Assembly (NCBI GenBank): GCA_964579825.1
Contig: CAZOHT010000008.1
Location: 33,613-97,612, forward strand
Reading direction: 5' to 3'
Origin: an uncultured Anaerolineaceae bacterium
GTDB lineage: Bacteria; Chloroflexota; Limnocylindria; Limnocylindrales; CSP1-4
DNA length: 64,000 bases
The notes beneath the pieces are model-generated. The model saw only the letters and a list, made by a program, of their open reading frames with translations. It had not been told where the DNA came from and searched no databases. A program made the position numbers and the translations under genes. This document shows positions 32,332 through 52,397 of this stretch, piece after piece; within the stretch, counting starts at the first letter, position 1; each line of letters begins with the position of its first letter.

Positions 32332-32474
32332 GAAATCGCCTCCGTGACAGGAGCTACTCGTAGCTCGCGTCGTGGAGGCGTCAGATCGCTGCGCCTGCTC
32401 CCGCGCGGGGTTCGTCCGGACTTATGTCGCTGCCGCCGAACTCCCGAAAGTCTAGTACGCCTTGGCCGGCTCGG

Positions 32475-32897
32475 CTAGCGCGTGGCTCCGCCCGGATCGT
32501 CGTTCGAGCGCCGGCGCGCCGCCAGGAACGCGGCCAGGTCCGCGACCGTCCGCCGGTCGGCGGGTGTCAGCGCATCAGCGGCGAAGCCGGGCAGGGCTCC
32601 AGGACCCAGCTCGCCCAGTTCGCTCCGAAGGCGCTCGATCGGCACCGCCCACAAGGTCTCGAGCAACTCGACCAGTGGGAGCCCGGTGGCATCCGAGAGC
32701 GCGATGAGATCGTCGGGCGTCGGGCGGGCCCGCGAGGGTCGGGTCGGATCGAGCAGCGCCGCGACGTAGCCAGGATCGCGGCCCATCGCCAGACTCAGGC
32801 TGCGCATCGAACGCCCAGAGCGCGCCAGCACGTCGCGCAGGGCCTGCCGGAACGCGTCGTCCGAGAGCGGCTGGTGGGAACCCTCTGGTGGTTGCAT
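32475..32897 (-). CDS. XRE/Cro-CI-like HTH transcriptional regulator
   Basis: 140 aa with HTH segment LRDVLARSGRSMRSLSLAMGRDPGYVAALL. Divergent from the integrase gene, with TGACGT-type repeats in the 29-bp spacer. Confidence 0.5.
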   Translation of the reverse strand: MQPPEGSHQPLSDDAFRQALRDVLARSGRSMRSLSLAMGRDPGYVAALLDPTRPSRARPTPDDLIALSDATGLPLVELLETLWAVPIERLRSELGELGPGALPGFAADALTPADRRTVADLAAFLAARRRSNDDPGGATR

Positions 32898-32928
32898 CTG
32901 ACGTCAGTGTGACGTAAGATAACGTCAT
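32898..32928. promoter_or_regulatory. Operator-like array of three ACGT-core half-sites (TGACGTCA, TGACGTAA, AACGTCAT) spaced ~10 bp apart in the 29-bp divergent spacer between the Cro/CI-like regulator and the integrase
   Basis: Seen directly: ctgacgtcagtgtgacgtaagataacgtcatg. TGACGTCA is itself a perfect palindrome. One-helical-turn spacing. Confidence 0.45.
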
Positions 32929-34015
32929 GTCAAGCGGGTTGGTCGCGGAGCGGATCGCGGACCCGCCGTCTGTCGCGACGCAGCCACCGGTCGGGCCAGT
33001 GGCCGGTCGGGAGCTTGCGCCACTGATCGCCGAGTACAGCGCCATTTATGGCCCGTCCTGGAAGCCAGCGACCGTCCGCAAGCACCGCGACGACTACCGA
33101 CGGCTCCTGGACTGGCTGACCGAGACGGGCCGGCCGACGACGACCGCATCGCTCGACTTCCTGACCCTCGCCGCCTACGTCACCGAACTGCGCAGCTGGA
33201 CGCCCAGTCGCGGCGTCGCGCGCGGAACTCGCCCCTGCCCGCCCGTGCGGTCGTCTACCGGCCAGGTTGCGACGCTCTCTGCGAACACGATCAACACGTA
33301 CATGCGGCCGATCCGCTCGTTCGCGATCTGGTTAGTTGACGAAGGCATCCTGCCGATGAACCCGTTTCGGCGGTCGCGGCGACGCGCCGCCCTCAACCCG
33401 CTGCTGCCGGCCGAGGACACCCCGACCAAGGGCGCCAGCCTGACCGACCTCCGCACGCTCGAACTGGGTTGCGCTGGCGCAGAGCCGATCGACCTGCGTG
33501 ACCGGGCCATCCTGGCCGTGCTCGTGACCACGGCCGCACGCAATAGCTCAGTGCGCCTGCTTCGACTCGACGATGTCGATCTGGACCGCGACCTGATCTG
33601 CTTCCATCGTGCCAAGGGCGACAAGACTCTGGAGATCACGCTGCATCCGAACGCCCGTGCCGCCATCGCGGCCTACCTCGAAGTCGGCCGGCCGGCGCTC
33701 GTCGGGACCGGCGAGGACCACGGCTACCTGTTTGTGTCGCGCAACCGGCCGTCCGAGCCACTGACGATGCATGCCCTGTCGCTCATGCTCACTCGCCGCT
33801 ACCGGGCTGGCGGTGGGTCCCTCCCTTACTTCGGCTCGCATCGGATCCGCCATGCGACGGCGACCATCCTGGTGAACAACGGCATGCCGCTCGAGGAAGT
33901 CTCCCGCTACCTTGGCCACAGCTCGACCGCGCCGACTCGTCGCTATGCGCAGCAGACGCCGGACTCGCTCGGGCGACGGGCTGCTGAGGCCTTGGCACGA
34001 GCGGGACTCACATGA
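32927..34015 (+). CDS. Tyrosine recombinase / phage-type integrase
   Basis: C-terminal catalytic region HRIRHATATILVNNGMPLEEVSRYLGHSSTAPTRRYA (R...HxxR...Y nucleophile). 362 aa with an N-terminal SAM-like domain. Confidence 0.8.
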   Translation: MSSGLVAERIADPPSVATQPPVGPVAGRELAPLIAEYSAIYGPSWKPATVRKHRDDYRRLLDWLTETGRPTTTASLDFLTLAAYVTELRSWTPSRGVARGTRPCPPVRSSTGQVATLSANTINTYMRPIRSFAIWLVDEGILPMNPFRRSRRRAALNPLLPAEDTPTKGASLTDLRTLELGCAGAEPIDLRDRAILAVLVTTAARNSSVRLLRLDDVDLDRDLICFHRAKGDKTLEITLHPNARAAIAAYLEVGRPALVGTGEDHGYLFVSRNRPSEPLTMHALSLMLTRRYRAGGGSLPYFGSHRIRHATATILVNNGMPLEEVSRYLGHSSTAPTRRYAQQTPDSLGRRAAEALARAGLT

Positions 34016-37141: not shown

Positions 37142-37450
37142 TGTTTGATACCTCAGGGAGGCCCCTCGCAGGGCGACTTGGTGCGAGCGGTCTCGCGTCG
37201 TCGCATCAGCATCGGCCCCGACACACGTCCCGGCAACTGGGCGAATCCCTATATGCCGCGGGCCCTACACGATGAGCGCGCGGCGCTCCTCGTCAGTTCG
37301 TCGTTCTGGGGCAGCGCGAAGGAGGCGTTGAGCGACGTGGCGACGGGCGCAGGGTTCCGCCCCATGTTCAATCTGCTGGCCGGTGAGACCGTCGCCGGAG
37401 CCCATAGGCCAGTCGTGCTACATGACATGTGCTGCGAAAGGGGGCCGAAC

Positions 37451-38320
37451 TATGGGCCGACGAAGCGTCCTGTTGTCGCTACTGATTGTGGCGTTCACAA
37501 CGACCGGCGCTCCTCCAGTCGGGGCGGCGGAACCCGACGAAGGGACGTTCATTACGCCCGATGTTGATCCGAACCCGGATCGAGTCGCGATCGCCGCTGC
37601 ACGGGGCCTGGACGCTCGATGAGGCCGCCGCGCAGGACCAGGCGGCGGAGGTGGTCGGGGCGGTGGCGGTGCGGGTTGCCGCTGAGAGTCCCGACGTCTT
37701 CGTCGGTTCGGCGCTCTCCGAGACTCCCGGTGGGCCACCCACGCTCTACGTGAAAGGGCCGGCAGAAGAGGGCTACGGAACCTGGTTTCGACGAGTCCGG
37801 TCGAGATCACCATCGCTGACAAACAGCCGTACTCGTTCTAAGAGCTTGAAGAACGCAAGATCGCGGTCCATCACGCTCTCGAGGAGATGGGCTACCGAAA
37901 CGTCGTCACCGATGTGAACACCACAGGTGGAGGGGTCATTCCTGCTGCCGTCGCCCGTGAGACCGGGCTAGCGACCGACGCTCGATCGATCGTCGAGGCG
38001 TTGCCCGAGTCGCTGCGGGCCGATGTCCGGCCGACCGTGCTCGAGCCGACCGCGTTCCGTGACACGACGTCGTTCGGAGGCATGTGGATGCGCGATTATG
38101 GCGCGAACGAGTGCACGAGCGGGTTCACGGTCCAGAGCCTGAACACTGGCACAGTCGGCGTGACGACCGCGGGCCGCTGCGGGGAATCAACCAGATCTAC
38201 CACCCCGGGCACGGCACACACTCCACTGACAACCAGTCGCGCCTCCCCCCGACTGCCAAGTGGATGCCTACTGGGCGGTCGACGACCTCCGCTTGCAGCC
38301 ATGACACTCGGGACGCCTTA
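37451..38320 (+). pseudogene. Frameshifted S1-family (streptogrisin / alpha-lytic protease-like) secreted serine protease pseudogene
   Basis: Signal peptide MGRRSVLLSLLIVAFTTTGAPPVGAAEP in one frame. Pro-region-like LYVKGPAEEGYG in a second frame. Catalytic-domain remnants ECTSGFTVQ and GVTTAGRCG (HCG mutated to RCG) in a third frame. Truncated before the catalytic Ser. Confidence 0.45.
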
Positions 38321-38564
38321 GGGACGCTCCCCGCATCACGGATGCCAGTACGCACGTGACAGGAGCGCCTCACAGCGACCGACGATCCACGCCGCAGCGC
38401 ACCACGTCGCCGGGAGCGAGCGTGAGTTGCCCACGTGTCCTCCGCAGTGGGGAGAACCCTCCACCGAGTCGTTTCGGCGCGGCCGCTCACCAGGCTTGGG
38501 CAGCGAGGGGGTCCTCCCACGTCGGGCCTGAGGTCCGACTGCCGATCAACCTTCGGCGCTGCGA

Positions 38565-39068
38565 CTAGGTCCGGTAGACCGAACTGAAGGCGTCGTTGAA
38601 CCCGCCACCCAGGATCGGGACGGACTCGTTGCAGCAGAAGTGATCTGCTGTCCCGGCGTGGAACCAGTCGGTATAGAAGGATCCGGTCTCGCTATTCCGC
38701 GCCTTGTAGGAACTGATGCGATCGTTCCAGCCGACCAGCGCGAGGACGTCGTAGTCCGACGAGATCTGCATGAACGGACCGGCGAACGATGGGGAGTCAT
38801 AGACGGTGACGTAGATCACGGCCGCAGCGAGCGAACGGTTGGCTGCGTGAGACGCTTCGAGTTCTGCCGCGCTAGAAAAGCACCGGATGATCGGGCGTTC
38901 GAGGTCGTGGCAGTAGTACTGGCTGATGCGGTCGACGGGGATGCGCTGACCGTCCAGCACCGCACGAATGGGCTCGCCGGCAAGGACCGTTCCTGTGGCG
39001 ACCGGCATCGCGACCAGAGTCAGAGACAGGACAATGAGCAATGTGAAACGACGGGCCACGAATCGCAT
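38565..39068 (-). CDS. Secreted beta/gamma-crystallin (Greek-key) domain protein
   Basis: GGAGG-7 nt-ATG. Signal peptide MRFVARRFTLLIVLSLTLVAMPVATG. Greek-key-like TVYDSPSFAGPFMQISSDYDVLALVGWNDRISSYKA (Y/F..G...NDRiSS). Several Cys residues. Confidence 0.45.
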   Translation of the reverse strand: MRFVARRFTLLIVLSLTLVAMPVATGTVLAGEPIRAVLDGQRIPVDRISQYYCHDLERPIIRCFSSAAELEASHAANRSLAAAVIYVTVYDSPSFAGPFMQISSDYDVLALVGWNDRISSYKARNSETGSFYTDWFHAGTADHFCCNESVPILGGGFNDAFSSVYRT

Positions 39069-39255
39069 GCCAGGACCTCCAACCCAACCGGCACAGACCG
39101 CCAATGGCTGGACCGTATGGAGGGCCCGACGCTGGAACTACGGGAAGGAACCCTGCGAACGACGTGGGTGAAACCCTTTGGGGTCGAGCGTTTCTGACCA
39201 GCAAGTCAAGCAAAACGAGATAGCTCGGTGACAGCCCGCTGTTACCCTCTGCACG

Positions 39256-40791
39256 ATGGGTGACACGCGGCGCACCCACGTCGGGGGACCCCTTCGTCGA
39301 GACGGGGGGTTTCCCTACGCGGTGGGGCGGTGGCGGCCGGTAGTTGGAGGCGTCGAAGGACGCCGTCTTCTGGCGTCCGTGGCGATCTTCGTCGCGATGT
39401 TCGGGCTGCTCAGCGCCAGCTTTGGCGGCGTCACCGCGGGAGTCGTCGCGGAGGATGTCGGCGGTCGGGTTGTCGAGGTGGATCCGGCTGGCTTCGCGTG
39501 GAGAGACGGAGTCCGACCGGGCCTGATCGTTGTCGCGCTCACCCCCGCTGACGCTCCGGGCGGTTGGAGCCTTACCGTCCGCGACCCCGATGGAACGACC
39601 TGGACGACCGCCGCGACGGCACACGAAGGGCCACTGCGCAGATCAGGATGGCTTGCAGCGATGGCGCTCATGCTTGCCGCGCTCGCCGCCATCGTCATCC
39701 GGAGGGTCCCACGCACCGCTGGGCTCGCACTGGCCGTCGCATCCTCGTTGGCCGCCGCTCCAATGGTCATCCAGGGCGACGCTTTGATCGCAGCGGCTGG
39801 GATCGGCTTCGCGGCTGCCTTTCCGTTGGTCGTGGCGGGTGTGATGCTCGGTGGCCGACCCGGGCGGTCCCTTGTGCTAGCAGGGTCAGTGGGAGGGCTG
39901 CTGCTCGTCGCCGCGGCCACCCAAGACGGACCGACGTTCTCAGTGGCCGTTCCCATCGCGGCCGGGATCGTGGTGTCGGCCGTCCTCGCATTCGATGAGC
40001 TTCGCCGACGCGGTGGGTCCGTGCGACCGAATGGACTCGACCTCGCCGTGCTGGGTCTCGCCTTTGCCATCGGGCTCGGCGCGATCCTGGTATTTCACCT
40101 CCCCCTGGAACTTGTCGTCCTTGCGCTCGCCGCCTTCCTCCTGCTGTACCCGCGCAGCCGGAGCCGCATCACGGCGACTGTCGACTCGGTTTGGCTCGAA
40201 GGCCTGCGGCGATCGGCAAAGACCATCGCCGTGGACGAAGAGCGAGCTAGGGTGGCGACCGATCTGCACGACGTCCCGATCCAGGAGTTGACTGGGGCCA
40301 TCGCGCGCCTCGAACAGGTACCCAATACCGAAGACGTCCGCGCCGAGCTTCGCGGCGTCGCGGACCATCTGCGCGAGACCGTGCTCGGGCTGGAGCCACC
40401 GTCGCTTGGCGTGCTTGGTCTTGGTCCCGCGCTGGCGCAGTTCGCCGAGGGCGGCGACGCCGGACGACCGGCAGTCGACGTAGCGGTCAGCTACTCGGAC
40501 CAGCGTCCACCGCAAGAGGTGGAGCGCGCGGCCTACCGAGTGGTCGAGGAAGCCGTTCGCAACGCGATCCGACATTCTCGAGGTCACCTGATCGAGGTCA
40601 CTGGGTCGATCGACCAGTCCACCGTAGACCTGTTGATCGACGACGACGGCACGGGCTTCGGGCTCCAAGAGCCCGCCGGTCACCACGGCCTGAACTCGAT
40701 GTGGCATCGCGCGCAGGCCGTCGGGGCCGCCCTCCAAGTCGATGGAACTCGGGGCGGGCATGTTCGATTCCTTTGGACGAAGCCGACATGA
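39256..40791 (+). CDS. Sensor histidine kinase (NarL-family partner: HisKA_3 + HATPase_c) with a membrane N-terminus
   Basis: Multiple TM helices. H-box VDEERARVATDLHDVPIQELT. ATPase motifs RVVEEAVRNAIRHS and IDDDGTGF. Stop codon overlaps the response regulator ATG (ATGA). The true start may be downstream of 39256. Confidence 0.65.
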   Translation: MGDTRRTHVGGPLRRDGGFPYAVGRWRPVVGGVEGRRLLASVAIFVAMFGLLSASFGGVTAGVVAEDVGGRVVEVDPAGFAWRDGVRPGLIVVALTPADAPGGWSLTVRDPDGTTWTTAATAHEGPLRRSGWLAAMALMLAALAAIVIRRVPRTAGLALAVASSLAAAPMVIQGDALIAAAGIGFAAAFPLVVAGVMLGGRPGRSLVLAGSVGGLLLVAAATQDGPTFSVAVPIAAGIVVSAVLAFDELRRRGGSVRPNGLDLAVLGLAFAIGLGAILVFHLPLELVVLALAAFLLLYPRSRSRITATVDSVWLEGLRRSAKTIAVDEERARVATDLHDVPIQELTGAIARLEQVPNTEDVRAELRGVADHLRETVLGLEPPSLGVLGLGPALAQFAEGGDAGRPAVDVAVSYSDQRPPQEVERAAYRVVEEAVRNAIRHSRGHLIEVTGSIDQSTVDLLIDDDGTGFGLQEPAGHHGLNSMWHRAQAVGAALQVDGTRGGHVRFLWTKPT

Positions 40792-41393
40792 TCGGCGTCG
40801 CCATCATCGATGACCACCCGGCGGTGCTGGCCGGCCTGGTACAGATGCTTTCGACCCAGGACGACATGCGAGTGGTTGGCACGGCGACCACGCTCGCTTC
40901 GGGTGGAGACCTCGTCTCAGACGAAGCAGTCGAGGTGGCCTTGATCGACATCAAGCTGGCGGACGGCTCAGGGCTTGACCTGGTGGCACATGCAACCAAG
41001 GGCGGCAGGCCCTCGGTCATCGTGCTCTCGAGCTTCGCCCACACTCCATACCTGGTCGCCGCCGCCGCGGCCGGCGCGCGTGGCTACCTTCTGAAGACGG
41101 CGCCGCTATCGGAGGTGGCCAATGCGATCCGGCGAGTGGCGGCTGGGGGAACGGTGTTCACGGCTGACCAGCTCCGCGAGACCCAGCGACCATCGGTGAT
41201 CCTGACCGAGCGCGATCGTCAAGTCGTTCGCCTGCTCGTCGCGTCCCGCTCCAACGACGAGATCGCTAAGACGCTCGGTCTATCGCGTAAGACGATCGAA
41301 GCGACCTTGACCAGGCTATACGAACGCTACGGCGCGCTGAGCCGCACAGAGTTGGCGATCAGGGCAATCGAGGAGGCCTGGCTGGACACCTGA
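40788..41393 (+). CDS. NarL/LuxR-family response regulator
   Basis: REC domain (IIDDHPAVLAGL...ALIDIKLADGSG) plus a C-terminal LuxR HTH (ERDRQVVRLLVASRSNDEIAKTLGLSRKTIEATLTRLY). Confidence 0.8.
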   Translation: MIGVAIIDDHPAVLAGLVQMLSTQDDMRVVGTATTLASGGDLVSDEAVEVALIDIKLADGSGLDLVAHATKGGRPSVIVLSSFAHTPYLVAAAAAGARGYLLKTAPLSEVANAIRRVAAGGTVFTADQLRETQRPSVILTERDRQVVRLLVASRSNDEIAKTLGLSRKTIEATLTRLYERYGALSRTELAIRAIEEAWLDT

Positions 41394-41500
41394 CGGGGTG
41401 GGGCCGTCTGTAGGACTGGCCTAGGGTTCTGCCCCCTAGCGCCGCCGCCGGTGCGGGTTGACCGTTCGCCTGGTCTGAGCCTGTCCAGGGAGCTGCGCCC

Positions 41501-43429
41501 GTGCGATCACAGACCGCGTCCATCCTCGCCGACGATGCCATGCGCGACGAGGTCGGCCGGCATCTCAACTCGCTCAGCGGCCGGGAGTTCCCGGCCATGG
41601 CGATCATCATCCCGCCCGAGGTGACGACGTCGGAAGCCTCTGCACCGCCACGACCTCCAAAGCGGCGACAGCGGCCCCAACCCGAGCTGCCGTCCCTGCC
41701 GAGGGAGGACATCGCCGCGGCTATGACCAATGCATCGCTCGAAGCGATCGTCCTGCGCTTCGGGCGACCATCACTGCTCATCCGGAACGACACGTTCGAG
41801 GTCCCACCCTCGGACACCTGGCGAGCCCGGCTCTATCCCGCCAAGACTCGGCTCGATCGGGTCATTCGATCCGTCGGCCGGGTGGAGGTAGACGGCATCG
41901 GCGCGACCCACCTCGGGACCGCGTGGATGGTGGCTCCTGGCATCGCTGTGACCAATCGACACGTGGCTTTGCTCTTCGCGCAACGTGGCGCACGAGGCCA
42001 GTTTCCCTTCCGCACGAGTCCGATCGGGCAGCGGTTCGCGCCCCGATTGGACTTTCGGGAAGAAGCGATCCCGAGCGAGCCACTGGAGGCCGCCATCAAG
42101 CGTGTGCTGTACATCGCCCCTGACGGTGATGACGAGCCGGATGTCGCGTTCCTCGAGGTCGGCCGCATCGGGAATCGGCCACTGCCACCGCCCATCCCGA
42201 TGTTCGATGGACAACCTGCGCCAAAGCAGATCGTTGCGACGATCGGCTATCCGGCTGCTGACTCCCGCAATGCCTTCGTCGACCAGCAGCGCATCTTCGG
42301 GGGCGTGTTCGATGTGAAACGCCTTGCCCCAGGCGAAGCGGTCGAACGTTTCGACGGCGGCTTCTTCAGCCACGACTGCTCGACGCTTGGCGGCAGTTCG
42401 GGCTCTGTCGTCGTGGACGTGACCACCGGCGCGGCCCTTGGCCTCCACTTCGCGGGGGTCTATCTGGAGGCCAACTACGCCGTCGCAAGTTCGGTGATCC
42501 GTCGGCGGCTGGCGAATCTGCGGAGCCGTCCGATCATCTCTACTCGCAGCCTGTCCGAGGTCACCGAGCCGGCACCGGAAGGAAGCGTCCAGGTCGCATC
42601 CCTGGCGGGCCGGACCGGCTTCGATTCCGCGTTCCTTGGGACAGGCGAGTTGCGCGTCCCCTTCCCCACCCTGTCGGAGGGCCTACGAGAGCAGGTCACG
42701 GTGGTGGACGACAAAGCCAAGGGCTCGAAGCGGTGGCGCCTGGAGTACGAGCACTTCAGCGTGGTCATGCACCGCGAGCGCCGGCTGGCCCTGTTCACGG
42801 CCGTTAACATCGACGGTAGCCAGCAGCAGCGCCTCAAGCGAGACAGCGACGTGTGGTCCAAGGACCCACGCATCTCGCTGGGTGCACAAGTCGACAACCG
42901 ACTCTACGCCGGAAACGACCTCGATCGCGGGCATCTCGTCCGGCGCCTGGACCCGACGTGGGGACCGAGCGCGAAGACAGCGCAGGACGACACCTTCTTC
43001 TTCACGAACTGCAGCCCCCAACACGCTCGCTACAACCAGAGCTTGTGGGCGGATCTGGAGGACTACCTCCTCGACAACGCTGAGACGGAGGGTTTCCGGG
43101 CCAGCGTCTTCACCGGCCCGGTCTTTGCGGCCACAGACCCTACCTATCGCGATGTCCGTCTCCCTGGCGCCTATTGGAAGGTCGCCGTCATGGTCCGAGC
43201 TGATGGGACGCGCCTGTCGACGACTGGCTACTTGGTCAGTCAGTCGGATCTGCTCACCAACCTTGAATTCGTGTACGGCCAGTTCAAGACCTACCAGGTG
43301 TCGATCGGGGTGATCCAGTCCCTAACCGGCCTCTCCTTCGGCCGATTGACGACCCTCGATCCACTCCATGGGCAGGAGTCCGCTCAGGCTCGGGAACTCA
43401 CTGTTCCCGGCGACGTCACGCTGCGTTAG
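41501..43429 (+). CDS. Fusion protein: trypsin-like serine peptidase domain + DNA/RNA non-specific endonuclease (Endonuclease_NS / NucA-like). No signal peptide.
   Basis: Protease triad GTAWMVAPGIAVTNRHVA (His), DVAFLEV (Asp), GGSSGSVV (Ser). Nuclease motifs DLDRGHLVRR (DRGH catalytic His) and FFFTNCSPQHARYNQSLW (metal-binding Asn). The N-terminal ~100 aa are charged, not secretory. Confidence 0.7.
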   Translation: MRSQTASILADDAMRDEVGRHLNSLSGREFPAMAIIIPPEVTTSEASAPPRPPKRRQRPQPELPSLPREDIAAAMTNASLEAIVLRFGRPSLLIRNDTFEVPPSDTWRARLYPAKTRLDRVIRSVGRVEVDGIGATHLGTAWMVAPGIAVTNRHVALLFAQRGARGQFPFRTSPIGQRFAPRLDFREEAIPSEPLEAAIKRVLYIAPDGDDEPDVAFLEVGRIGNRPLPPPIPMFDGQPAPKQIVATIGYPAADSRNAFVDQQRIFGGVFDVKRLAPGEAVERFDGGFFSHDCSTLGGSSGSVVVDVTTGAALGLHFAGVYLEANYAVASSVIRRRLANLRSRPIISTRSLSEVTEPAPEGSVQVASLAGRTGFDSAFLGTGELRVPFPTLSEGLREQVTVVDDKAKGSKRWRLEYEHFSVVMHRERRLALFTAVNIDGSQQQRLKRDSDVWSKDPRISLGAQVDNRLYAGNDLDRGHLVRRLDPTWGPSAKTAQDDTFFFTNCSPQHARYNQSLWADLEDYLLDNAETEGFRASVFTGPVFAATDPTYRDVRLPGAYWKVAVMVRADGTRLSTTGYLVSQSDLLTNLEFVYGQFKTYQVSIGVIQSLTGLSFGRLTTLDPLHGQESAQARELTVPGDVTLR

Positions 43430-43445
43430 CGCACAGGAGGGCAAT

Positions 43446-44171
43446 ATGTCCTTGATTCGCGTTGGTCAAACACTGGCCCCAGCGACCGCGGGGTTGGCGA
43501 TCGAGGAAGCTCCGGCTGCCTTGCTCAGGACCTCGGCCACGCCCGCTCAGGTGTCGGTCCTGCCGCCCACGGCGTCGGCGGTGGGTGGCGCGGCAGCGGA
43601 GAGGCGGGCGATCGTCGGTGGGTACGTCCTGTTCGGCGCTGGCCTGCTGATCACGGGGCTCAGCGTGCTTGTCCGGGACATCCCAGACAGCCGACCGGGC
43701 ACGGGATTCGACGTCTTCGCCCTGCTGTACATCTTCGCTCAGTCCATCGAGCGCTTGATCGAGCCCCTCTCGAAGTTCGTTTCCGGGACCGGGACCAGCG
43801 GCACTGAGCGGACGACCAAAGAAGAAGCCAAGGACAAGCGCGCGACCGCGATCAACGAAGCACTCGAGGCGACGAACGCTGCGACAAAGAAGGGGGCGGT
43901 CGACCAGGCAGCCGCAGCGCAGAAGGCGATCGACCAAGCCCGCGCAAACGCCGCGTACTGGATGTGGGGCGTCGCAACCCTGCTCGGACTCCTGGCTGCC
44001 ACGTTCTTTGGCGTGCGGATGCTCGCGGCGGTCGGCGTGGCGGGACCGCATCCCATCTTCGACGTCTGGGTGACCGGACTGATCATCGGATCGGGCACCA
44101 AGCCGCTCCACGACCTCGTCGAGCGGATCCGCCTTCCGAAGGAAGAGAAGGAGAAGGACGCCGACGCCTAG
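43446..44171 (+). CDS. Membrane protein (2-3 TM helices) with a Lys/Ala-rich coiled segment, immediately downstream of the protease-nuclease gene
   Basis: ATG 17 nt after the preceding stop codon. Hydrophobic segments GGYVLFGAGLLITGLSVLV and WGVATLLGLLAATFFGV. No family recognised. Confidence 0.4.
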   Translation: MSLIRVGQTLAPATAGLAIEEAPAALLRTSATPAQVSVLPPTASAVGGAAAERRAIVGGYVLFGAGLLITGLSVLVRDIPDSRPGTGFDVFALLYIFAQSIERLIEPLSKFVSGTGTSGTERTTKEEAKDKRATAINEALEATNAATKKGAVDQAAAAQKAIDQARANAAYWMWGVATLLGLLAATFFGVRMLAAVGVAGPHPIFDVWVTGLIIGSGTKPLHDLVERIRLPKEEKEKDADA

Positions 44172-44339
44172 TCACGCGCCTTCAAAACGCCTCAGTCCTC
44201 CGCATCTTCCGAGGGCATCCGAATCGCCGTCCCGCGGGAAGTCATCCGGGCCCCGACGTAGGGTTGTGCCCCCTTTGCTGGGTACCAGTCCGGGCCGCCA
44301 GGCTGCAAGTCGGCCCATCGACATGGTGCCCCTGCGATA

Positions 44340-45020
44340 GTGGGAGATGCGTTCACGAGTTCTGCTAGTGGTTGGCGCTTTTGCCGCGTCGCTCGGGCTG
44401 GGAGCCGCTCCGTCGGAGCTGCTCGTGCGCCGTCATCCGATGGGTATCTCTACCAAAGTGAGCCGCCAGAACCGCTTGGAGACGCGAAGCAGTCGACTCT
44501 CCGAGGGACGCGGAATGCCGACGGCAGTTGCCACTACGACTATCCAGCGACGCCAACCGATCCCGACAAGGGTGAGGAGCAGGTCACTGAGCAGGTGCCA
44601 GAGGCGACTGCGGGTCGTGCCGACTCTCCAGCCCTTCATGCGACGTCGACCGCTTCCAGCTACAACTGGACGTGGCGGGAGGACATCCTGGGCATCAAGA
44701 TGACCCAGGATCGAACCAACATCTCGTGGTCCTACAACGGATCTTGCTCACTCGTTGGCTCGACCTCCGGGCAGTGGACGTGGGCCACTGGCACGGGGTG
44801 GCAAATCGTATCCAACAGCGGGAATGAGTTGGAAAGCTGTGCGGACTATCGCGGAGAGACCAAGTCAACCTTCAAGAACAGTTGGTTCTGCGCGCCACTC
44901 CCGACGGTTTACACGTACTACTACTATGTGCGCGCCTACGGTCAGGAGAACGGTTCGATCACAGGCTCGCGACGAGTGCACCCCGTTTGGATGCACTACT
45001 CCGTGCAGAAGGTCACCTAG
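44340..45020 (+). CDS. Hypothetical secreted protein. The signal peptide is encoded in the +1 frame (from 44347), so there is an apparent frameshift near 44420-44435.
   Basis: Frame starting at 44347 gives MRSRVLLVVGAFAASLGLGAAPSELLV, then Arg-rich junk. Frame starting at 44340 becomes protein-like from SSDGYLYQ and has lower-GC coding through to ...YYYYVRAYGQENGSITGSRRVHPVWMHYSVQKVT. Confidence 0.3.
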   Translation: MGDAFTSSASGWRFCRVARAGSRSVGAARAPSSDGYLYQSEPPEPLGDAKQSTLRGTRNADGSCHYDYPATPTDPDKGEEQVTEQVPEATAGRADSPALHATSTASSYNWTWREDILGIKMTQDRTNISWSYNGSCSLVGSTSGQWTWATGTGWQIVSNSGNELESCADYRGETKSTFKNSWFCAPLPTVYTYYYYVRAYGQENGSITGSRRVHPVWMHYSVQKVT

Positions 45021-45383: not shown

Positions 45384-46444
45384 GGCGGTGAGCACAACCG
45401 TGTGGCCGGTCAAGGGTTCTACCCCATTGCGTCGAAACGAGCGCCGCGCGAGCCTCCGCGATGGAGGTGGTGTTCATGGACGAGCGAGACGAGATCCGCA
45501 GCGCGGCCCTTGAGGAAGTCACCGAGGCGGCCTTCAACGGCGTGCTCAAGGCACTCGAGCGCCGGCGCCTCACGATCGAGACATTCCCGGGCCCGATCAT
45601 CGTCGGCATCATCGCGTGGCCGGACCTCCGAAACGCCCCCGGGCAGATCAAGGACCTGGGCCAGCAGACGAAGGGCGGCTGACTCCCGTGATCGACGGCG
45701 ACGTCGACACGCTATGCCCAAGCGCCCAGCCGGACCAGCCAGGCGCAATCATCTTTGGCCTCATCGAGGGAACGGCTGAAGCGCCGCGTGTTCGATACCT
45801 ATCCCGAGCGCTGCCGATACTCGAGGACGTCTTGGCGCTGGCTGGCCCGGTCGAGCCCACCGAGGTGTTCCGATTTGCCGCACCCTGTGCCCTTGACGCG
45901 TGCCAGCACTTCGAGGAGGGAGCATGCCAACTCGCGGCCAAGATCAGCCGCCTCCAGAGCGGTGAGGGGCTCGGCGTCCCGCCCTGTCGCATCCGTCACC
46001 AATGCCGCTGGTGGCGCCAGGAAGGCAAGGCAGCCTGCCACGCATGCCCCAACGTCATCACGCTCGACTACCGGCCACCAGCGCAACTGAGGCTCGCGGC
46101 TGATCCTTCGACGCGGTGATCAGCCCGAGATCGAGGATAGAGCAGCAGACCCTAGGCGGCCCGCGACGCGCGCAGCACCCGCCCAAGCACGACGATGTTT
46201 GGGCGCATGCCCGCGTACTGCTCCTCGACACGACGCCAGGCGTTCGCGATCTCAGGATCGTCGATGGCAGCGCTACGGACACCGGCCTCGATCGCGCCGA
46301 GCACGCCGCCGTGCGTCCGGACGAGCCGGTCAAGTTGCCGTACCGTCGCGATTCGATCTGTCGTCATCCCTCTGTCTCCTTTCCATCGGCACGTTCGCCG
46401 AAGCTTGTGACACCTTGGTTGTCACCTTCGGCCGGGGAGGTTGC

Positions 46445-48262
46445 ATGTCAATCGATGAGCAGGCGCCAGAACCCGCCAGCGAGGATGGCGCGGACCAGCC
46501 GCATGCGCGCCTGGATCAGGTCAACGTGTTCCTCGTGCGCGAAGGGATCGCCGAGCCCGCGGATGCCCTGACGAGAGACCTGGGGGATCCGATCCCGGTG
46601 GGTGTCGGGGACCTCGAGGGAGAGCTGTATCTCTCGCGGGGCAGGCCGCGCGCACCCGCCTGGCTACCCTTCGTTCGCTCGATCACCGGTGAGGACATCC
46701 CGTACGAGCGCGAACCAACACTCTCGGCCGTCCTGTTCGTGCGTCGTGGGGCGCGCCTCTACGCCATCACCTTCGGGTATGGGCGCCACCTTCTCGACCG
46801 GTCCGCGCTCGAGGCCGACTTCGGGCTCAAGGTGGCCGCCGGCCTGGTTGACCCCGAGGAGATCGCCGCGCTCGACACCCGCTCGGTCGAGGCGACGTCG
46901 ATCCAGGTACGTCGGCAGTCGTCCAGGGGGGTGACCGCAGCAGCCATCGGCTTCAACGTCAGCAGAGAGATGCTCAGAGCGATCGCGGGGCCGATCGCGG
47001 ACGACCAACTCGGATCCCGGATCGTCGGATCCGACGGACTTGCCCTGACGGCTCGCCTCCAAGCGAAGGACGTCGGACCGCGTCTGGACCGCATCGGCCG
47101 GGCGTATGCCGACGGCTTGTACACCGCCAACTTCGCACACATCGACCGCTGGTCCGAGGTGCCTCCTGGAGCGAAACGGTCGGAATTGGACGAGGCGCTG
47201 GTGGAGGCCATCGAGCGCCGCTGGACGCAGCTCAGCGCTGGCGAGGATCCAGTCTCGCTCGCTGCCGGTGGTGACCGACCTCCATCCCTCGAGGCGCCGG
47301 AGGTGCTCGGGTGGGAGTCGGCAGCGTTCCGCACAACGCCTGAAGCCGACAGCGTGCTCCACGCGTTTCCATCGATCGATGCCTACCTCGAGGCGCTCGA
47401 CAACGCGCCAACGCTTCCCCAGCTGAGGCGGGGACATCGACTCTCGGTGATCTCAGACATCGACAACTCCGAGGTCGCCCGCTGGCCCATCCATGGCGCG
47501 ATCCTCTGGGAGGTGCAGGACGACGCGGACACATTCGTCTTGGCGGAGGGTCGCTGGTGGCGCATCGACGCGGGATACCGCAACCGCATCGACGAAGCCC
47601 TCGCACAGATCCCGCCGGCCACACTGGACCGTCCTGACTTCGACCCCATCGAGGAGGAACGCGACTACAACATCCGCCTCGCGGCCTACGAGGATCGCGC
47701 CCTCCTCGATCGGAAGATGACGTATTTCAGGCACGAGAGCGGGACAGTCGAGGCCTGCGACGTCCTGACGCGCAATCGTCAGCTGGTGCACGTCAAGCCC
47801 GATGCCACCTCAGCGATGCTGTCGCACCTGTATTCCCAGGCGGTGGTATCGGCACGCCTCTTCCTGATGCTGCCTGAGTTCCGTGAGCAGATCCGCAAGG
47901 TGCTTCGAGACACGAATCATGAGTCGTTCGTCGACCTCGTGCCAGCCGGACGGCCCGTCACCGCTGACTACGAGGTAGTGCTCGCGATCGTCCGGACTGG
48001 CGTCGGCCCGCTTGCGGTGGACCTCCCATTCTTCGCCAGGAACAACTTGGTAGGCGCGGTCGCCGACCTCCAACTGATGGGCTACCGAGTGGGCCTCGCT
48101 CGCATCGAGTCACGCGATGGAGCACGGCCAGCTAACGCGGGTCCGCTGCAGAAGGAGCTGGACGCGGAGCGCAAGGCCAACCTCACCATGCGAAGCAGCG
48201 CCCGGGGCCGTCGGTCACGGGTCCAGTCACCAGGCAGCGTGACGCTAACGGCCGGACCCTGA
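46445..48262 (+). CDS. TIGR04141 / DUF6119-family 'sporadically distributed' protein
   Basis: GGGGAGG-5 nt-ATG. N-terminal VNVFLVREGIAEPADAL...PAWLPFVRS and C-terminal EACDVLTRNRQLVHVKPDATSAMLSHLYSQAVVSARLF match my memory of the family hallmark (...LiHvKr...SS.LSHLfsQG.vSa). 605 aa. Confidence 0.45.
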   Translation: MSIDEQAPEPASEDGADQPHARLDQVNVFLVREGIAEPADALTRDLGDPIPVGVGDLEGELYLSRGRPRAPAWLPFVRSITGEDIPYEREPTLSAVLFVRRGARLYAITFGYGRHLLDRSALEADFGLKVAAGLVDPEEIAALDTRSVEATSIQVRRQSSRGVTAAAIGFNVSREMLRAIAGPIADDQLGSRIVGSDGLALTARLQAKDVGPRLDRIGRAYADGLYTANFAHIDRWSEVPPGAKRSELDEALVEAIERRWTQLSAGEDPVSLAAGGDRPPSLEAPEVLGWESAAFRTTPEADSVLHAFPSIDAYLEALDNAPTLPQLRRGHRLSVISDIDNSEVARWPIHGAILWEVQDDADTFVLAEGRWWRIDAGYRNRIDEALAQIPPATLDRPDFDPIEEERDYNIRLAAYEDRALLDRKMTYFRHESGTVEACDVLTRNRQLVHVKPDATSAMLSHLYSQAVVSARLFLMLPEFREQIRKVLRDTNHESFVDLVPAGRPVTADYEVVLAIVRTGVGPLAVDLPFFARNNLVGAVADLQLMGYRVGLARIESRDGARPANAGPLQKELDAERKANLTMRSSARGRRSRVQSPGSVTLTAGP

Positions 48263-48305: not shown

Positions 48306-48918
48306 TCATTCCGTCGGGGCGATCCAACCTTCGCGGATCGCCCGGGCCACGAGTTCGGCGCGCGAGGAGACCGACGTCCTCTCGAATAGCCGTCTGAGGT
48401 GCGACTCGACGGTCCGCGAAGAAACGCCAAGGCGTCCCCCGATCTCGTCGTTGGACAACCCTTCGATGACCGCGCTCATGACCTCGCGCTCGCGGGCGGA
48501 GAACGTTGGCTCGCCCTCGGACGGGCGGACCAGATATGTCATGCCCCCGGCCGCTGCTCGACGAACGGCGGCCACCACCTCGAAGGCGGGCGCCGACTTC
48601 GGCAGATACCCGGCCGCGCCCAACTGCAGGGCGCGGCGAACGTACGGCGAGTAGTCGAAGGCTGACAGGATAACCACAGCGGGCCGACGCTCGGCCTGAC
48701 GCTCGAGGAGTTCACTGAGGAGCGTGAAGCCGCTTTCGTCCTGGAGGTGCAGGTCCAGCAGCACGACATCGACGCCGTCAGGAAACGTTCGAAGGGCCGC
48801 CAAGTCTCCGGCCGCTAGGACGACCCGCATGTCAGGCTCGCGGTCGACGATGGCAGCCGTCCCTTCGCGAACCACCGCATGATCGTCGACCACCGCGACT
48901 GCGATCGTGTCCTTGGTC
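48306..48918 (-). CDS. NarL/LuxR-family response regulator
   Basis: GTG start at 48918 overlapping the kinase stop codon (GTGA). REC domain (AVAVVDDHAVVREG...VLLDLHLQDESG) plus LuxR HTH (EREVMSAVIEGLSNDEIGGRLGVSSRTVESHLRRLF). The track ORF's upstream extension is Arg-rich junk. Confidence 0.75.
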
Positions 48919-50476
48919 ACGCCGGCCACAGCAGGACCACCTCGGTGCCGCCACCCGTCCTCGGCCCAACGTGGAGGCGGGCCCCGATCTGGTCCGCGCG
49001 CTGACGCATCGTGTCGAGGCCGAAGTGACGCTGATCCGGGGAGTGCCCAACGTCGATGCCTGGACCTCGGTCGCGAACGTCGAGGCGAGCGTGACCGGCA
49101 TCTGCGGCGTACGAGACAGCGATCCTGCCGCCCCCGTGCCGCACGGCGTTCGAGATCGCTTCCTGCGCAACCCGGTACATCGCCAACTCCACGTCGGCAG
49201 GCGGTCGCGCTGGATCGTCGACCTTCAGTTCGATCCCAGATTCGGAGAGTGGGGACGTCCGCTCGACCAGCCACTCCAGCGCAGGTCCCGCACCAAGCGT
49301 ATCGAGCATCGGCTGGCGTAGGTCTGCGCAGACATCCCGGAGACGATCTGAGACCTCCCGCGCCAACGCACTGCCCTGCTGATCGCCGAGATCGTCGAAT
49401 CGACGCGCGACGACTGACAGGTCCTGCAGAACGTCATCGTGGAGGTCAGCGGCCAGTCGGCGACGCTCCTCCTCGGCTGCCTGCACGGCGACGTCAAGGT
49501 GACGTTGTGTGCGCTCGGCGGCCCGGAGGAGCGGGCCCACGGAGAGGATCCGCCAGGCCAGGAACGCAGGCACGGCCAACGCGGCAAACGGCAGCGCGAC
49601 CAAGCCGACGTTGACGCCGACCGATGTTGCGATCACTGCCGACGCCGCGATCGTCTCCTGCTGGACATCGCCGAACCGGGATGCAGACCGCCGAACCGAG
49701 AAGCACGCTGCGACAATCGAGACTCCCATCAGCATCGCGCGCACGACGTCGTCGTCCAGGTATTGCCCGCCGGCCGCCATCTGGGCAATGCCAACGGTGG
49801 CGAGTAGCAGCAACGGGCCAGCGGTGACGATGGCCCATCGGTGGTCGGCCGGACGGCCGACCGTCGCCCACAGATAGAGCGCCGCGCCAGGGAGGACGAA
49901 CAAGGCTGCCAAGAGCGCGAACGGGATGCCAGTCGCCTGGAGGGGCACGACGAGGAGAGGGACGCTGTATGCCGCGACCAGCGCCGAACCGATCCTCGGC
50001 CAGGACGTTCCGAACCGACCGCTAACTCCGGCGACCACGATGGCCAGCGAGGCCACGATGCCGACGGCGAGGGCCCAGCCCGACGCTCGCACGTGAGTAA
50101 CCGCATCAGATCGCTTAGCCTCGACGAACGGGCGCCCGCCGGCGGCTGTTGGACCGGCGACCGCCCTGACCAGCTCGATGCGTTCGGCGATCAGGGGCGA
50201 GCCGATCAGCTCCGCGAACGCCTCGTCCAGATCGCCCCCCACAACGACTCGAGTCCCGTCGTCGAGCACGAGATCCTCGATCCGGGCCCCGGGCATCAGC
50301 CCCGCGTCGCTGGCCCAAGACCCAGGCGTAACGTTGGCGACTCGTACGCCGCTCTCGCCGCCATACGAGACCGCGAAGCCGAGGGCGACGTCAGATGTCA
50401 CCCACGCGGTTGTCGACCAGCAAGCCACGACGAGGACGAGGACCGCCGCCAACACGTCGCGCACGGAAGCGCTCAC
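48917..50476 (-). CDS. Sensor histidine kinase (HisKA_3 + HATPase_c), membrane-anchored
   Basis: H-box RRRLAADLHDDVLQDLS. ATPase motifs MYRVAQEAISNAVRHG and DVRDRGPGID. Multiple TM helices. Distant paralogue of 39256..40791. Confidence 0.7.
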   Translation of the reverse strand: MSASVRDVLAAVLVLVVACWSTTAWVTSDVALGFAVSYGGESGVRVANVTPGSWASDAGLMPGARIEDLVLDDGTRVVVGGDLDEAFAELIGSPLIAERIELVRAVAGPTAAGGRPFVEAKRSDAVTHVRASGWALAVGIVASLAIVVAGVSGRFGTSWPRIGSALVAAYSVPLLVVPLQATGIPFALLAALFVLPGAALYLWATVGRPADHRWAIVTAGPLLLLATVGIAQMAAGGQYLDDDVVRAMLMGVSIVAACFSVRRSASRFGDVQQETIAASAVIATSVGVNVGLVALPFAALAVPAFLAWRILSVGPLLRAAERTQRHLDVAVQAAEEERRRLAADLHDDVLQDLSVVARRFDDLGDQQGSALAREVSDRLRDVCADLRQPMLDTLGAGPALEWLVERTSPLSESGIELKVDDPARPPADVELAMYRVAQEAISNAVRHGGGRIAVSYAADAGHARLDVRDRGPGIDVGHSPDQRHFGLDTMRQRADQIGARLHVGPRTGGGTEVVLLWPA

Positions 50477-50598
50477 CTGCGGACATTAGCGTGACCATGC
50501 TCGAACGCCAATGCGGAAGAACCCTCAACCGACCTCTGTAGGGCCGCGGCTTGCGTTCAGAGCGTTTCCGTTCACGATCGATCGTAGGAGGCCCGCAC

Positions 50599-51489
50599 AT
50601 GTCGATCGTAGCAACGCAGACAGACCACTCCACCGCGCCCGCCAACGTGGCCCTAGGGGCGCGGGGCTTGCAGAAGCGATTTGGCCGCACGATCGCACTG
50701 GCTGGGATCGATGTATCGATCCCAGTCGGTTCGGTCACTGGTCTGGTCGGACCGAACGGGGCTGGCAAGTCGACGCTGATCCGCACCTGGGCTGGCTTCG
50801 AGCGTCCGGACCGCGGCTCGGTCGAAGTCATGAGCGTCGACCCGTCAGTGGACGGGCGGCGCATCCGGGACCTCGTCGGCTACGTGCCGCAGAACCCACG
50901 CATCTATGAAGACCTAACGGTTGAGGATCACCTCGAGGTCGCGTTCCAGCTTCGTCCCTCGTTCGATCGCGAAGGCGCAGCCGCCCATCTCGAACGCGTC
51001 GGCGTCGCCCCAGGCGCTCGCGGACGGCACCTGTCCGGAGGGCAACAGGCCCAGGTCGCGCTCGCCCTTGCATTGGGGACGCGCGCGGCGATCCTGCTGC
51101 TGGATGAGCCCTTGGCCGCCCTCGATCCCCTTGCGCGGCGCGAGTTCCTGGAGCAGGTGCGGATCTCGGGCGAGGAGCGCCCGCGGACGGTGCTGCTGTC
51201 GTCGCACGTCGTCGGCGACGTGGCACAGGCCTGCGATCGAGTGGCCGTGCTGGGAGCCGGGACCGTCCTTGCTCACGACACGCTCGAGAACCTTACGCTT
51301 CGTCACTCGGTGACCGACGTGCCAGGCCCCTGGGCAACGCTGGTCGGGTCCTTTCCGGCTGAGAATGGTCACACCAACTTCGTGTATCGAACCGATGGTG
51401 GTGTGTCTGTCGGCCGGCAGGCAACCCTCGAGGAAGTCGTCCTCGCGTACCTGGCCGCCGGTCGCCACATGGAGGCAAGCCGGCGATGA
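50599..51489 (+). CDS. ABC transporter ATP-binding protein
   Basis: AGGAGG-7 nt-ATG. Walker A GPNGAGKST, signature LSGGQQ, Walker B LLLDEP. Confidence 0.8.
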   Translation: MSIVATQTDHSTAPANVALGARGLQKRFGRTIALAGIDVSIPVGSVTGLVGPNGAGKSTLIRTWAGFERPDRGSVEVMSVDPSVDGRRIRDLVGYVPQNPRIYEDLTVEDHLEVAFQLRPSFDREGAAAHLERVGVAPGARGRHLSGGQQAQVALALALGTRAAILLLDEPLAALDPLARREFLEQVRISGEERPRTVLLSSHVVGDVAQACDRVAVLGAGTVLAHDTLENLTLRHSVTDVPGPWATLVGSFPAENGHTNFVYRTDGGVSVGRQATLEEVVLAYLAAGRHMEASRR

Positions 51490-52397
51490 GAGCGCATCTG
51501 CGGGTGGTGCTGCTGATGCATCGACTCGAGCTGATGATCTTCGCCTTCGTCGCCTTCGCGTGGGCCGTCGCTGCGGTCATCGTTATCGCGATGAGCTATT
51601 CGACCACCTCAGCAAACCCAGGGTGCTTCGGTCACCTGCCATCTGGCGCCGGCTGTGGCGCGGTGGCCGAGGCGTTCATCCCCATCGAGCGGACATCGCA
51701 GGTGATCGCCGGCATCGTTCCGCTGTTCGCCCTTGCAGTCGGCACCCTGATCGGAGTCGGGGTCATTGCGCGGGAACTCGAGCAAGGAACGGCACAGATC
51801 TCCTGGTCGCTGGTCTCGAGTCGCATTCGGTGGCTGCGCTGGCGCTCTGGTCCCGCACTCCTCGCGGTCGTCACCCTGGTGGCGATCCTGGCGGTGCTCG
51901 CCGAGTTCCTGGTTCGGACCAGGCTGGGTCTCGACGACCCGGGCTTCATCGCCTCTGGTGAGCGAGGCCTGGCAGTCCTGGTCCGATCCGTGCTGGCGTT
52001 CTCCTGTGGCCTCCTCGCGGGGGCGGTGCTCGGGCGACAACTGCCAGGACTGATCGTCGCGGTCGCCCTGGCGGTCGCCCTGTCGCTGGGCGCCGACGCC
52101 GCACTCGATGCCTGGCGCGCGACCGAGGCTCGCGCGGTCGCTTTCGAGCAGATTGTTGGCGACGTCGACCTCATGGGCGGGATGACGATCGACCAGGTGG
52201 CGATCCTTCCGGATGGCTCGTACACGCGCGAGCGAGATGCAGTCGAGCTTCCCGATGACTACGTCGATGGAGCGCTGATCCTTCCCGCCAATACCTTCGT
52301 CTCATGGGGCATCCGTGAAGCGATCGTCGTCCTCGCCCTCGCGCTCGGAGTCTCTGCCATCGCCGCCGCCATCGTTCGGTCTCGTCGACCGCGCTAG
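51486..52397 (+). CDS. ABC-2-type transporter permease
   Basis: Start overlaps the ATPase stop codon. About 6 hydrophobic helices. No further motifs recognised. Confidence 0.55.
   Translation: MRAHLRVVLLMHRLELMIFAFVAFAWAVAAVIVIAMSYSTTSANPGCFGHLPSGAGCGAVAEAFIPIERTSQVIAGIVPLFALAVGTLIGVGVIARELEQGTAQISWSLVSSRIRWLRWRSGPALLAVVTLVAILAVLAEFLVRTRLGLDDPGFIASGERGLAVLVRSVLAFSCGLLAGAVLGRQLPGLIVAVALAVALSLGADAALDAWRATEARAVAFEQIVGDVDLMGGMTIDQVAILPDGSYTRERDAVELPDDYVDGALILPANTFVSWGIREAIVVLALALGVSAIAAAIVRSRRPR

Follow-up and report, generated by a model that had tools for sequence, protein, structure and literature searches.

A trypsin-like protease fused to a NucA/EndoG-type nuclease in an uncultured Chloroflexota bacterium: a member of the predicted NucA-peptidase class

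A single gene at positions 41501-43429 (+) of the DNA considered here encodes a 642-residue protein in which a trypsin-like serine protease is followed by a nuclease of the NucA/EndoG type. Judged by homology and architecture, this protein is a member of the computationally predicted NucA-peptidase class, described in 2020, and not a new system. The DNA, referred to below as the window, is a stretch of 64,000 nucleotides (approximately 65% G+C) from an uncultured Anaerolineaceae bacterium (GTDB lineage Bacteria; Chloroflexota; Limnocylindria; Limnocylindrales; CSP1-4), taken from NCBI GenBank assembly GCA_964579825.1, contig CAZOHT010000008.1, positions 33,613 to 97,612 of the forward strand. 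For this window the result is mostly a clarifying one: the gene is real and intact, its system had already been predicted, and the membrane protein gene behind it is incidental. We lean, if only slightly, towards reading the protein as a latent, self-inhibited cytoplasmic suicide effector of the NucA-peptidase class, whose nuclease is licensed by proteolysis.

The fusion gene, its start and its catalytic residues

The open reading frame (ORF) starts with GTG and encodes 642 aa. Pfam places Trypsin_2 at residues 139-315 (E 2.6e-12, 48 bits, cut-off 27.6) and Endonuclease_NS at residues 413-614 (E 4.1e-47). In an alignment of 25 homologs with 44-96% identity, the protease triad H154 (TNRHV), D214 (PDVA), and S300 (GGSSGS) is invariant, as are the nuclease residues D475-R476-G477-H478, N503, P506-Q507, N512, W516, E520, and R427. 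The nuclease set comprises the general-base His of DRGH, the Mg-binding Asn and the Arg and Glu of the active site. Both domains are predicted to be catalytically competent; the nuclease is a complete beta-beta-alpha-metal enzyme of the NucA/EndoG type, and the protease module is a complete one of the S1 type.

All 120 best database homologs contain both domains, the complete ones being 610-690 aa long. This shared architecture rules out a frameshift or fusion artifact and, together with the strong purifying selection on the gene, establishes the fusion as real. The N-termini of 118 homologs align at residues 1-2 of the protein, and in the two closest relatives an ATG takes the place of GTG-41501, behind a conserved GGAG-like ribosome-binding site; the start at 41501 is therefore well supported. 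Neither the fusion protein nor any of the 118 family members shows a signal peptide or N-terminal hydrophobic region in a hydropathy scan, which took the highest 12-residue value within the first 70 residues (1.47 in the fusion protein, at most 1.9 across the 118 members, and 2.84 in a secreted neighbor used as a control, the I36-like protein described below). An alternative start or a signal peptide is thus ruled out by the homologous N-termini, the start codons of the relatives and the scan. None of the 118 members has a transmembrane segment, and from the missing export signal the protein is judged to be cytoplasmic.

The first-pass annotation of this DNA had described an intact triad and intact Endonuclease_NS motifs within one 642-aa polypeptide without a signal peptide, and had proposed Pfam searches for Endonuclease_NS and Trypsin_2. 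Both families were matched, and the invariant residues, the supported start and the hydropathy scan agree with that description. It had also named two findings that would overturn it, a secretion signal revealed by a re-annotated start and two genes joined by a frameshift, and neither was found.

These data also bear on a very unlikely alternative, in which the protein is an exported enzyme of virulence, competition or nutrient scavenging that leaves the cell by a route free of signal peptides. A virulence role was suggested for protease-linked Endonuclease_NS by Jablonska et al. (2017), whose classification of His-Me finger nucleases noted the linkage and tied peptidase fusions to virulence. 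The classical relatives (Serratia nuclease, NucA, EndA) are extracellular, and Rhs toxin genes are present within the same window. Against export stand the lack of any signal peptide or transmembrane segment in the 118 members, the lack of recurrent secretion-system genes among the nearest neighbors at 70 loci, and the lack of Pfam matches to Rhs, PAAR, or WXG-type delivery domains in the fusion protein; over 13 kb separate the Rhs genes from the fusion gene.

Module anatomy and predicted structure

The modules below were delimited with Pfam, alignments of homologs and an AlphaFold2 (AF2) model with its predicted local distance difference test (pLDDT) values.

41501..43429 (+): whole fusion gene, trypsin-like protease and NucA/EndoG-type nuclease, 642 aa (Pfam, homologs, AF2, Foldseek)
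41501..41578 (+): conserved N-terminal helical segment, residues 1-26 (alignment; predicted helices 2-10 and 12-26)
41579..41698 (+): variable Pro/Arg-rich disordered linker, residues 27-66 (pLDDT <50; gap-rich and unconserved in 118 homologs)
41723..42520 (+): protease module, residues ~75-340 (Pfam, alignment)
41960-41962, 42140-42142, and 42398-42400 (+): catalytic codons of H154, D214, and S300 (alignment)
42521..42601 (+): variable interdomain linker, residues 341-367 (no column conserved above ~50%)
42602..43360 (+): nuclease module, residues 368-620, with DRGH at 42923-42934, N503, N512, and E520 (Pfam, alignment)
43361..43429 (+): conserved acidic C-terminal tail DPL...E....REL....DI.L, residues 621-642, and stop codon (alignment)

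The N-terminal segment has no Pfam match, and its E17 is kept in 96% of sequences. The protease module carries a conserved lead-in, EAIVLRFGRPSLL...W107...GRVE, and the nuclease module has a conserved N-terminal extension of its own, R-x-G-[YF]-D-x-x-F-L-G...VP[LF]P. D620 is invariant, and E626, E632, and D638 of the C-terminal tail are conserved; we infer that this tail could be an inhibitory or cleaved element. The interdomain linker shows a weak acidic preference at residues 357-360. A conserved Glu serving as the cleavage site of a Glu-specific protease was considered and dropped, the linker having nothing beyond this weak preference, and the GLH and T295 motifs, which might imply Glu specificity, were not used as evidence. 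A role of the N-terminal helix or the C-terminal tail as an EAD-like homotypic adaptor was likewise rejected, since hidden Markov models of these segments matched none of 496 neighboring ORFs and Pfam found no EAD.

The AF2 model has a mean pLDDT of 76 and a predicted template modeling score (pTM) of 0.70, with residues 27-66 disordered. Foldseek matches the nuclease half to EndoG, Serratia nuclease, NucA, and EXOG (target-normalized TM-scores of 0.66-0.70 to EndoG), and the protease half to HtrA, Spl (SplA), and Esp proteases; no solved structure with both halves together is among the matches. By sequence, the nearest solved proteins to the nuclease are Anabaena NucA (1ZM8/2O3B, E about 1e-11) and EndoG.

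Relation to described systems

The NucA-peptidase system was described as 'System 3' by Kaur, Burroughs, Iyer and Aravind (2020, eLife; PMC7159879), as a NucA domain with a trypsin-like peptidase to which it is sometimes fused. Its variants include trypsin and S8 domains flanking NucA and, in subsets, EAD1 or STAND-Death-like components, and a proteolytic cascade deploying NucA was proposed. The authors counted 45 organisms, mainly alphaproteobacteria, in which peptidases fused to transmembrane segments and EAD1 coupling are frequent, and reported NucA systems to be over-represented in multicellular bacteria. The same group later names it the NucA-trypsin system (PMC8195603), and a protease survey of 2008 had already listed the architecture, as a Fusobacterium protein. 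No experimental study of any family member was found in the searchable literature.

Membership of the present protein is established by homology and architecture, because its relatives reproduce the described variants. As in System 3, a NucA/Endonuclease_NS nuclease is combined with a trypsin-like peptidase, here within one ORF; relatives show Trypsin-NucA-S8 proteins and multi-peptidase operons, the window copy itself being a single gene; and STAND ATPases and EAD-bearing peptidases (AAA_16, EAD5-trypsin) are neighbors at the loci of some relatives. Unlike the reported cases, the window gene is solitary, with no EAD, transmembrane segment, STAND component or second peptidase, and the large clade around it is marked by a conserved N-terminal helix and C-terminal tail of its own. 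The EAD1 coupling and STAND-bDLD2 component, optional in Kaur et al., are absent from the window copy, and Pfam finds no EAD in the fusion protein or in its neighbors within the window.

The first-pass annotation had not recognized a named defense system. This holds in so far as PADLOC-DB v2 gave no match to a system-specific model, nor any match for the nuclease half and the membrane protein, but the architecture has been described under the names NucA-peptidase and NucA-trypsin. Its suggestion that proteolysis controls a toxic nuclease is the very proposal that Kaur et al. (2020) made for this architecture. Its abortive-infection logic is plausible and had also been proposed before; the membrane partner that it considered possible is unsupported.

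The protease half partially matches the PADLOC model 'nacht' (E 7e-13). A trypsin-like protease effector domain is thus shared with bNACHT/Avs and RT-protease defense proteins (matches to 'nacht' and 'RT-Protease_XI'), but neither a NACHT/STAND nor a reverse-transcriptase domain occurs in the fusion protein or its immediate neighbors. Anabaena NucA (1ZM8, 2O3B) has the same DRGH/Asn/Glu catalytic set and likewise a producer that needs protection from the nuclease; NucA, however, is secreted and inhibited in trans by the separate NuiA, whereas the fusion has no signal peptide, no NuiA-like neighbor and a fused protease.

The modules in the preprint of Evans et al. (2025) provide a further parallel. 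These are four other protease-effector modules, including a zymogen of an MBL-fold nuclease, which are activated by site-specific proteolysis, in the case of the nuclease by the removal of occluding linkers. The main text does not name Endonuclease_NS, and ten surveyed families go unnamed in it. In both cases a death effector, latent or presumed so, is coupled to trypsin-like, caspase-like or S8 proteases and to modular sensors, and the pairing of protease and effector is conserved (here, two trypsin clades with the same nuclease, and split forms adjoining peptidases). The present nuclease differs in being a His-Me finger NucA and not an MBL enzyme, and in being on one chain with its protease. 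The best structural matches of the two halves, EndoG and HtrA-type proteases, also recall mitochondrial EndoG and HtrA2/Omi, apoptosis executioners thought to be of bacterial ancestry (PMC8195603). EndoG and HtrA2/Omi are, unlike the fusion, separate proteins controlled by compartmentation, and the fusion protease lacks the PDZ domain of HtrA2/Omi.

Architectures and distribution of the family

The protease module (residues 1-340) was searched against 1.84 billion representatives and gave 620 clusters (50% identity) at E<=1e-30. Its architectures include nuclease-fused proteins (~620-650 aa), stand-alone proteases (~310-340 aa), and tandem trypsins, and further Trypsin-EndoNS-S8 (P0185), Trypsin-EndoNS-TPR-S-Trypsin (P0209), X-Trypsin-EndoNS (X being an N-terminal region with no assignment), Trypsin-TPR-S-S8, Trypsin-PLDc_2, and Evf-Trypsin. 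Of the loci gathered, 35 match the nuclease module only. In some of these, the nuclease module is joined to a trypsin of a second, distinct clade (~600-720 aa); others have stand-alone nucleases of ~290 aa, which keep the N-terminal extension and the C-terminal tail and adjoin a trypsin (3 loci), an astacin (1), a patatin (1), Ku/LigD (1), or an unidentified gene (1). Across phyla, as judged by these architectures, the protease and nuclease modules are coupled, either fused, or split into adjacent genes, or placed inside larger multi-peptidase proteins. At the Ku/LigD locus (L073, 6978-11019), the stand-alone nuclease module is found between the genes of Ku and LigD (ligase, primase-polymerase), a context of non-homologous end-joining and not of a peptidase.

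The fusion clade occurs in Actinomycetota, Acidobacteriota, Chloroflexota, and Pseudomonadota. The family is present in 141 plasmid records, mainly from rhizobia, Bacillus, Nostoc, and Paracoccus; on a Bradyrhizobium plasmid, an operon combines the fusion with two more genes of serine proteases, and a PLD-like gene and Dpd genes adjoin it. No full-length relative was found in a collection of phage genomes, which is counted neither for nor against an effector role.

Recurrent neighbors

ORFs within 6 kb of the fusion gene were clustered for 78 loci, and Pfam was run on the cluster representatives. A papain-like Peptidase_C1 is found immediately downstream of the fusion in 9 loci; caspase-like Peptidase_C14 recurs in 5 loci and Peptidase_S8 in 3, TPR-S- or EAD5-linked Trypsin_2 is nearby in 5, and AAA_16 STAND-like ATPases (~1040 aa) in 4. 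A census of the 118 nearest neighbors at 70 loci gave Peptidase_C1 eight times, Trypsin_2 and AAA_16 four times each, Peptidase_S8 and Peptidase_C14 three times each, and nSTAND1/WD40, TPR-S, serpin, and MBL-fold proteins twice each. AAA_16 or nSTAND1 neighbors occur in ~6 of the 70 loci, and no partner is universal among these 118 neighbors. Relatives are also found beside CHAT/caspase, patatin and TPR-S, PycTM/ThsB-TIR/UvrD, and ubiquitin-like E1/E2/JAB systems.

A conserved immunity or inhibitor gene, whether NuiA or another small neighbor, was not detected by Pfam, neighbor clustering or the census. At two loci, a gene of a serpin (serine-protease inhibitor) is among the nearest neighbors of the fusion, and such a serpin could be an inhibitor of the protease in trans.

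Conservation and the Pseudomonas aeruginosa homolog

Compared with the related locus L088, the fusion gene differs at 226 synonymous and 29 non-synonymous codons and its product is 95.5% identical, while identity drops to 78-83% for the kinase, the regulator, the membrane protein, the I36-like protein, and a 167-aa ORF. Divergence at third codon positions is 0.37 in the fusion gene and 0.33-0.44 in its neighbors. By this comparison, purifying selection on the fusion gene is much stronger than on everything around it.

A 642-aa homolog with the same two domains, aligning end to end, is encoded in P. aeruginosa (L096, 6779-8707; NZ_CP133752.1). A tblastn alignment covering 87% of the query gives 44% identity; the homolog has DKGH instead of DRGH, and matches PADLOC 'RT-Protease_XI' as well as 'nacht'. 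Its adjacency to ilvA and its length (642/656 aa) make it the apparent counterpart of PA1327, annotated as "probable protease" (PMC6945700). In the literature, PA1327 is found in mutation and expression lists only, except for one phage-escape isolate: in a single escape mutant of phage PaStL1, the sole detected change was PA1327 R245P (PMC12627681). R245 is inside the invariant GYPA-x-D-x-RN motif of the protease. This hint at a link to phage infection is a lead only.

Such conservation has to be weighed with regard to a role outside defense, in which the fusion would be a chromosomally stable, stress-induced or developmental protein of protein and nucleic-acid turnover (starvation, autolysis, developmental death). 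Very strong purifying selection relative to the neighbors, identity of ~45% kept between Actinomycetota and Pseudomonas, the metabolic genes around the P. aeruginosa copy and the over-representation of NucA systems in multicellular bacteria (Kaur et al., PMC7159879) would all fit such a role. The patchy distribution, the variable, island-like neighborhoods, the occurrence on plasmids (141 records) and neighbors that are mostly conflict-system peptidases and STAND ATPases argue against it, and we consider it quite unlikely.

Proposed mechanism

If the protein is a latent suicide effector, its nuclease must be silenced in cis, because no inhibitor is encoded alongside it. Candidates for the silencing element would be the acidic C-terminal tail, the N-terminal helix with the disordered linker, and packing against the protease. 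A trigger, infection or stress, would switch the protease on by itself or through oligomerization. In some relatives, the trigger is probably relayed by neighboring caspase-, papain-, subtilisin- or trypsin-like peptidases or STAND ATPases, and in the present lineage the NarL-type regulator next to the gene might contribute control at the level of transcription. Cleavage of the flanking inhibitory segment or segments would then free the nuclease activity, and the non-specific nuclease would degrade cellular and invader DNA and RNA, leading to death or arrest. Any general cleavage target would more likely be in the N-terminal extension or the C-terminal tail of the nuclease than in the interdomain linker, since split versions have no such linker.

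Several observations weigh against this mechanism. No cleavage site is identifiable in the alignment, where the interdomain linker has no conserved residue, and the tail and the helix are conjectural as autoinhibitory elements. By Pfam, the window copy has no adjacent STAND component or second peptidase, and no sensor domain, STAND or other, is matched within it or beside it. The P. aeruginosa homolog is located between ilvA and a LysR gene, with no obvious defense island. Very strong conservation is unusual for genes in an arms race, yet it is compatible with an effector role.

The two domains might instead be independent effectors on one chain, with no proteolytic licensing and with control exerted through expression, possibly by the NarL regulator, or through an unlinked inhibitor. 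Linkers with no conserved cleavage site agree with this, as does the protease module that occurs also alone or with PLD and may have substrates of its own; so do, in the present lineage, the conserved palindrome upstream (see below) and the adjacent regulator gene. An unrestrained non-specific nuclease in the cytoplasm, however, has to be tightly controlled after translation, and the neighborhood has no conserved inhibitor gene such as NuiA; the coupling of protease and nuclease persists in split genes, which suggests functional dependence; and a link with a two-component system is found in only ~5 of ~90 loci. We regard independent effectors as doubtful.

Within the preferred reading of a protease-licensed suicide effector, a stronger version is that the solitary ~640-aa form is a complete one-protein immune or suicide device, a self-licensing zymogen nuclease that does without a separate sensor or inhibitor. 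The N-terminal helix and the disordered linker would then be the trigger-sensing or autoinhibitory element, and the protease would license the nuclease in cis or within an oligomer. This version seems unlikely to us; if it were true, PA1327 would be an unrecognized chromosomal defense or death gene.

Should the licensing mechanism hold, the family would be a large class of protease-gated death effectors that share the nuclease fold of eukaryotic EndoG, and proteolysis-licensed prokaryotic immunity would gain a fifth major type of effector as well as its simplest form, a single polypeptide. The question is directly testable for the family, because the apparent ortholog PA1327 belongs to a genetically tractable model organism.

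The downstream membrane protein gene

43446..44171 (+): 241-aa membrane protein gene, starting 17 nt past the fusion stop codon, with at least two strongly hydrophobic segments

The 241-aa protein has no Pfam, NCBIfam, or PADLOC match. Conservation of the window neighbors was followed with tblastn against related loci (87 first, then 92, then 95). The membrane gene was found only in L088, L089, and L095, all with a fusion protein ~95% identical to that of the window, and in none of the ~85 other fusion loci. Relatives with 69-70% identity in the fusion have a different ORF of ~110 aa downstream, or none. A reverse search gave only 26 homologs of the membrane protein; those with 34-42% identity are found among unrelated housekeeping genes, with no fusion nearby. 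In L095 (6709-7432), the membrane gene is split into two reading frames and the fusion is intact; the split could reflect either genuine pseudogenization or a mistake in the assembly.

The membrane protein had been put forward as a possible partner, anchor or inhibitor, and a survey of gene neighborhoods had been suggested as the check. The pairing with the fusion is not conserved, and a partner role is rejected on account of the lineage-limited occurrence and the unrelated contexts of the distant homologs. Further downstream, ~800 bp (44181-44988) that contain most of a 226-aa ORF at 44340-45020, itself with no family match, are missing from the otherwise collinear L095, which looks like a small insertion/deletion polymorphism.

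The upstream two-component system and the spacer

38565-39104 (-): secreted 179-aa protein with a weak Inhibitor_I36 (beta/gamma-crystallin-like) match
39256-40791 (+): HisKA_3-type histidine kinase (Pfam)
40701-41393 (+): NarL-type regulator, Response_reg and GerE (Pfam)
41421..41439 (+): perfect palindrome CTAGGG-N7-CCCTAG, a candidate operator in the 107-nt spacer between regulator and fusion, found by eye in the alignment

The fusion gene directly follows the NarL-type system in the window, as had been remarked at first reading, but this arrangement is no general feature of the family. Among the related loci, those of P0001, P0002, P0003 (at a distance of 7 kb), and P0009 (as a remnant) are the only ones to have the kinase, the regulator and the secreted I36-like protein as a trio close to the fusion. 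This linkage is confined to the closest clade, with fusions 55-96% identical, and the orientation, order and distance of the genes vary. The I36-like gene accompanies the kinase/regulator pair or its remnant in these four lineages, and it is directly upstream of the fusion in L002, L090, and L091. In view of the restriction to the closest clade and the shuffled arrangement, the two-component system is rejected as an integral part; the adjacent regulator may provide lineage-specific transcriptional control at most.

The palindrome is kept in L088 and L095, though the surrounding DNA of L088 is only ~80% identical. It has a single exact copy in the window; a search tolerating two mismatches gives 3 matches where 1.2 would be expected, a non-significant excess. 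A second inverted repeat, CCTGG(A/T)C-N7-GTCCAGG at 41470-41490, just 5' of the ribosome-binding site, was noted by eye only and is also conserved in L088 and L095. A repeat search of the intergenic spacers found nothing at its length thresholds, and promoter and terminator scans around the fusion gene gave nothing informative.

Setting within the window

The window is rich in conflict and mobile genes, which, together with the neighbors of the relatives, gives circumstantial support to a conflict role of the fusion.

4551-15479 (-): giant Rhs-repeat protein, 3642 aa, with a C-terminal AHH (HNH/EndoVII) nuclease toxin domain
17003-18229 (-): Shedu SduA gene, between the two Rhs genes (Pfam SduA_C; PADLOC SduA, E 3.9e-117)
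20844-28244 (+): giant Rhs-repeat protein, 2466 aa, with a DUF6531 domain
28977-34015: mobile-element remnant with a terminase-like RNaseH domain protein, an HTH protein, an N6/N4 methyltransferase (PADLOC MTase_II), and a tyrosine integrase
46199-48262 (+): DUF6119/TIGR04141 'sporadically distributed protein' (E 1e-113)
48306-52397 (pair on -): second NarL-type kinase/regulator pair, 38% identical to the first, next to an ABC-2 transporter
53934-58355: ThiF/E1-like gene (weak PADLOC E1-E2 matches), followed by Gp49 (HigB-like) and a long HTH-TPR gene

The two NarL-type pairs bracket the segment of 41.5-48.3 kb. The true start of the DUF6119 gene is probably well downstream of 46199, since the Pfam match begins at residue 109; the gene is present in L095 and absent from the corresponding position in L088. 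At the place corresponding to 53934-58355, L088 has Multi_ubiq, Prok-E2, and ThiF genes. At 37383-38321 (+), three overlapping ORFs in different frames have no match in the PDB; by eye, they contain CTSGF and a Gly-rich stretch, and the segment resembles a decayed secreted S1 protease.

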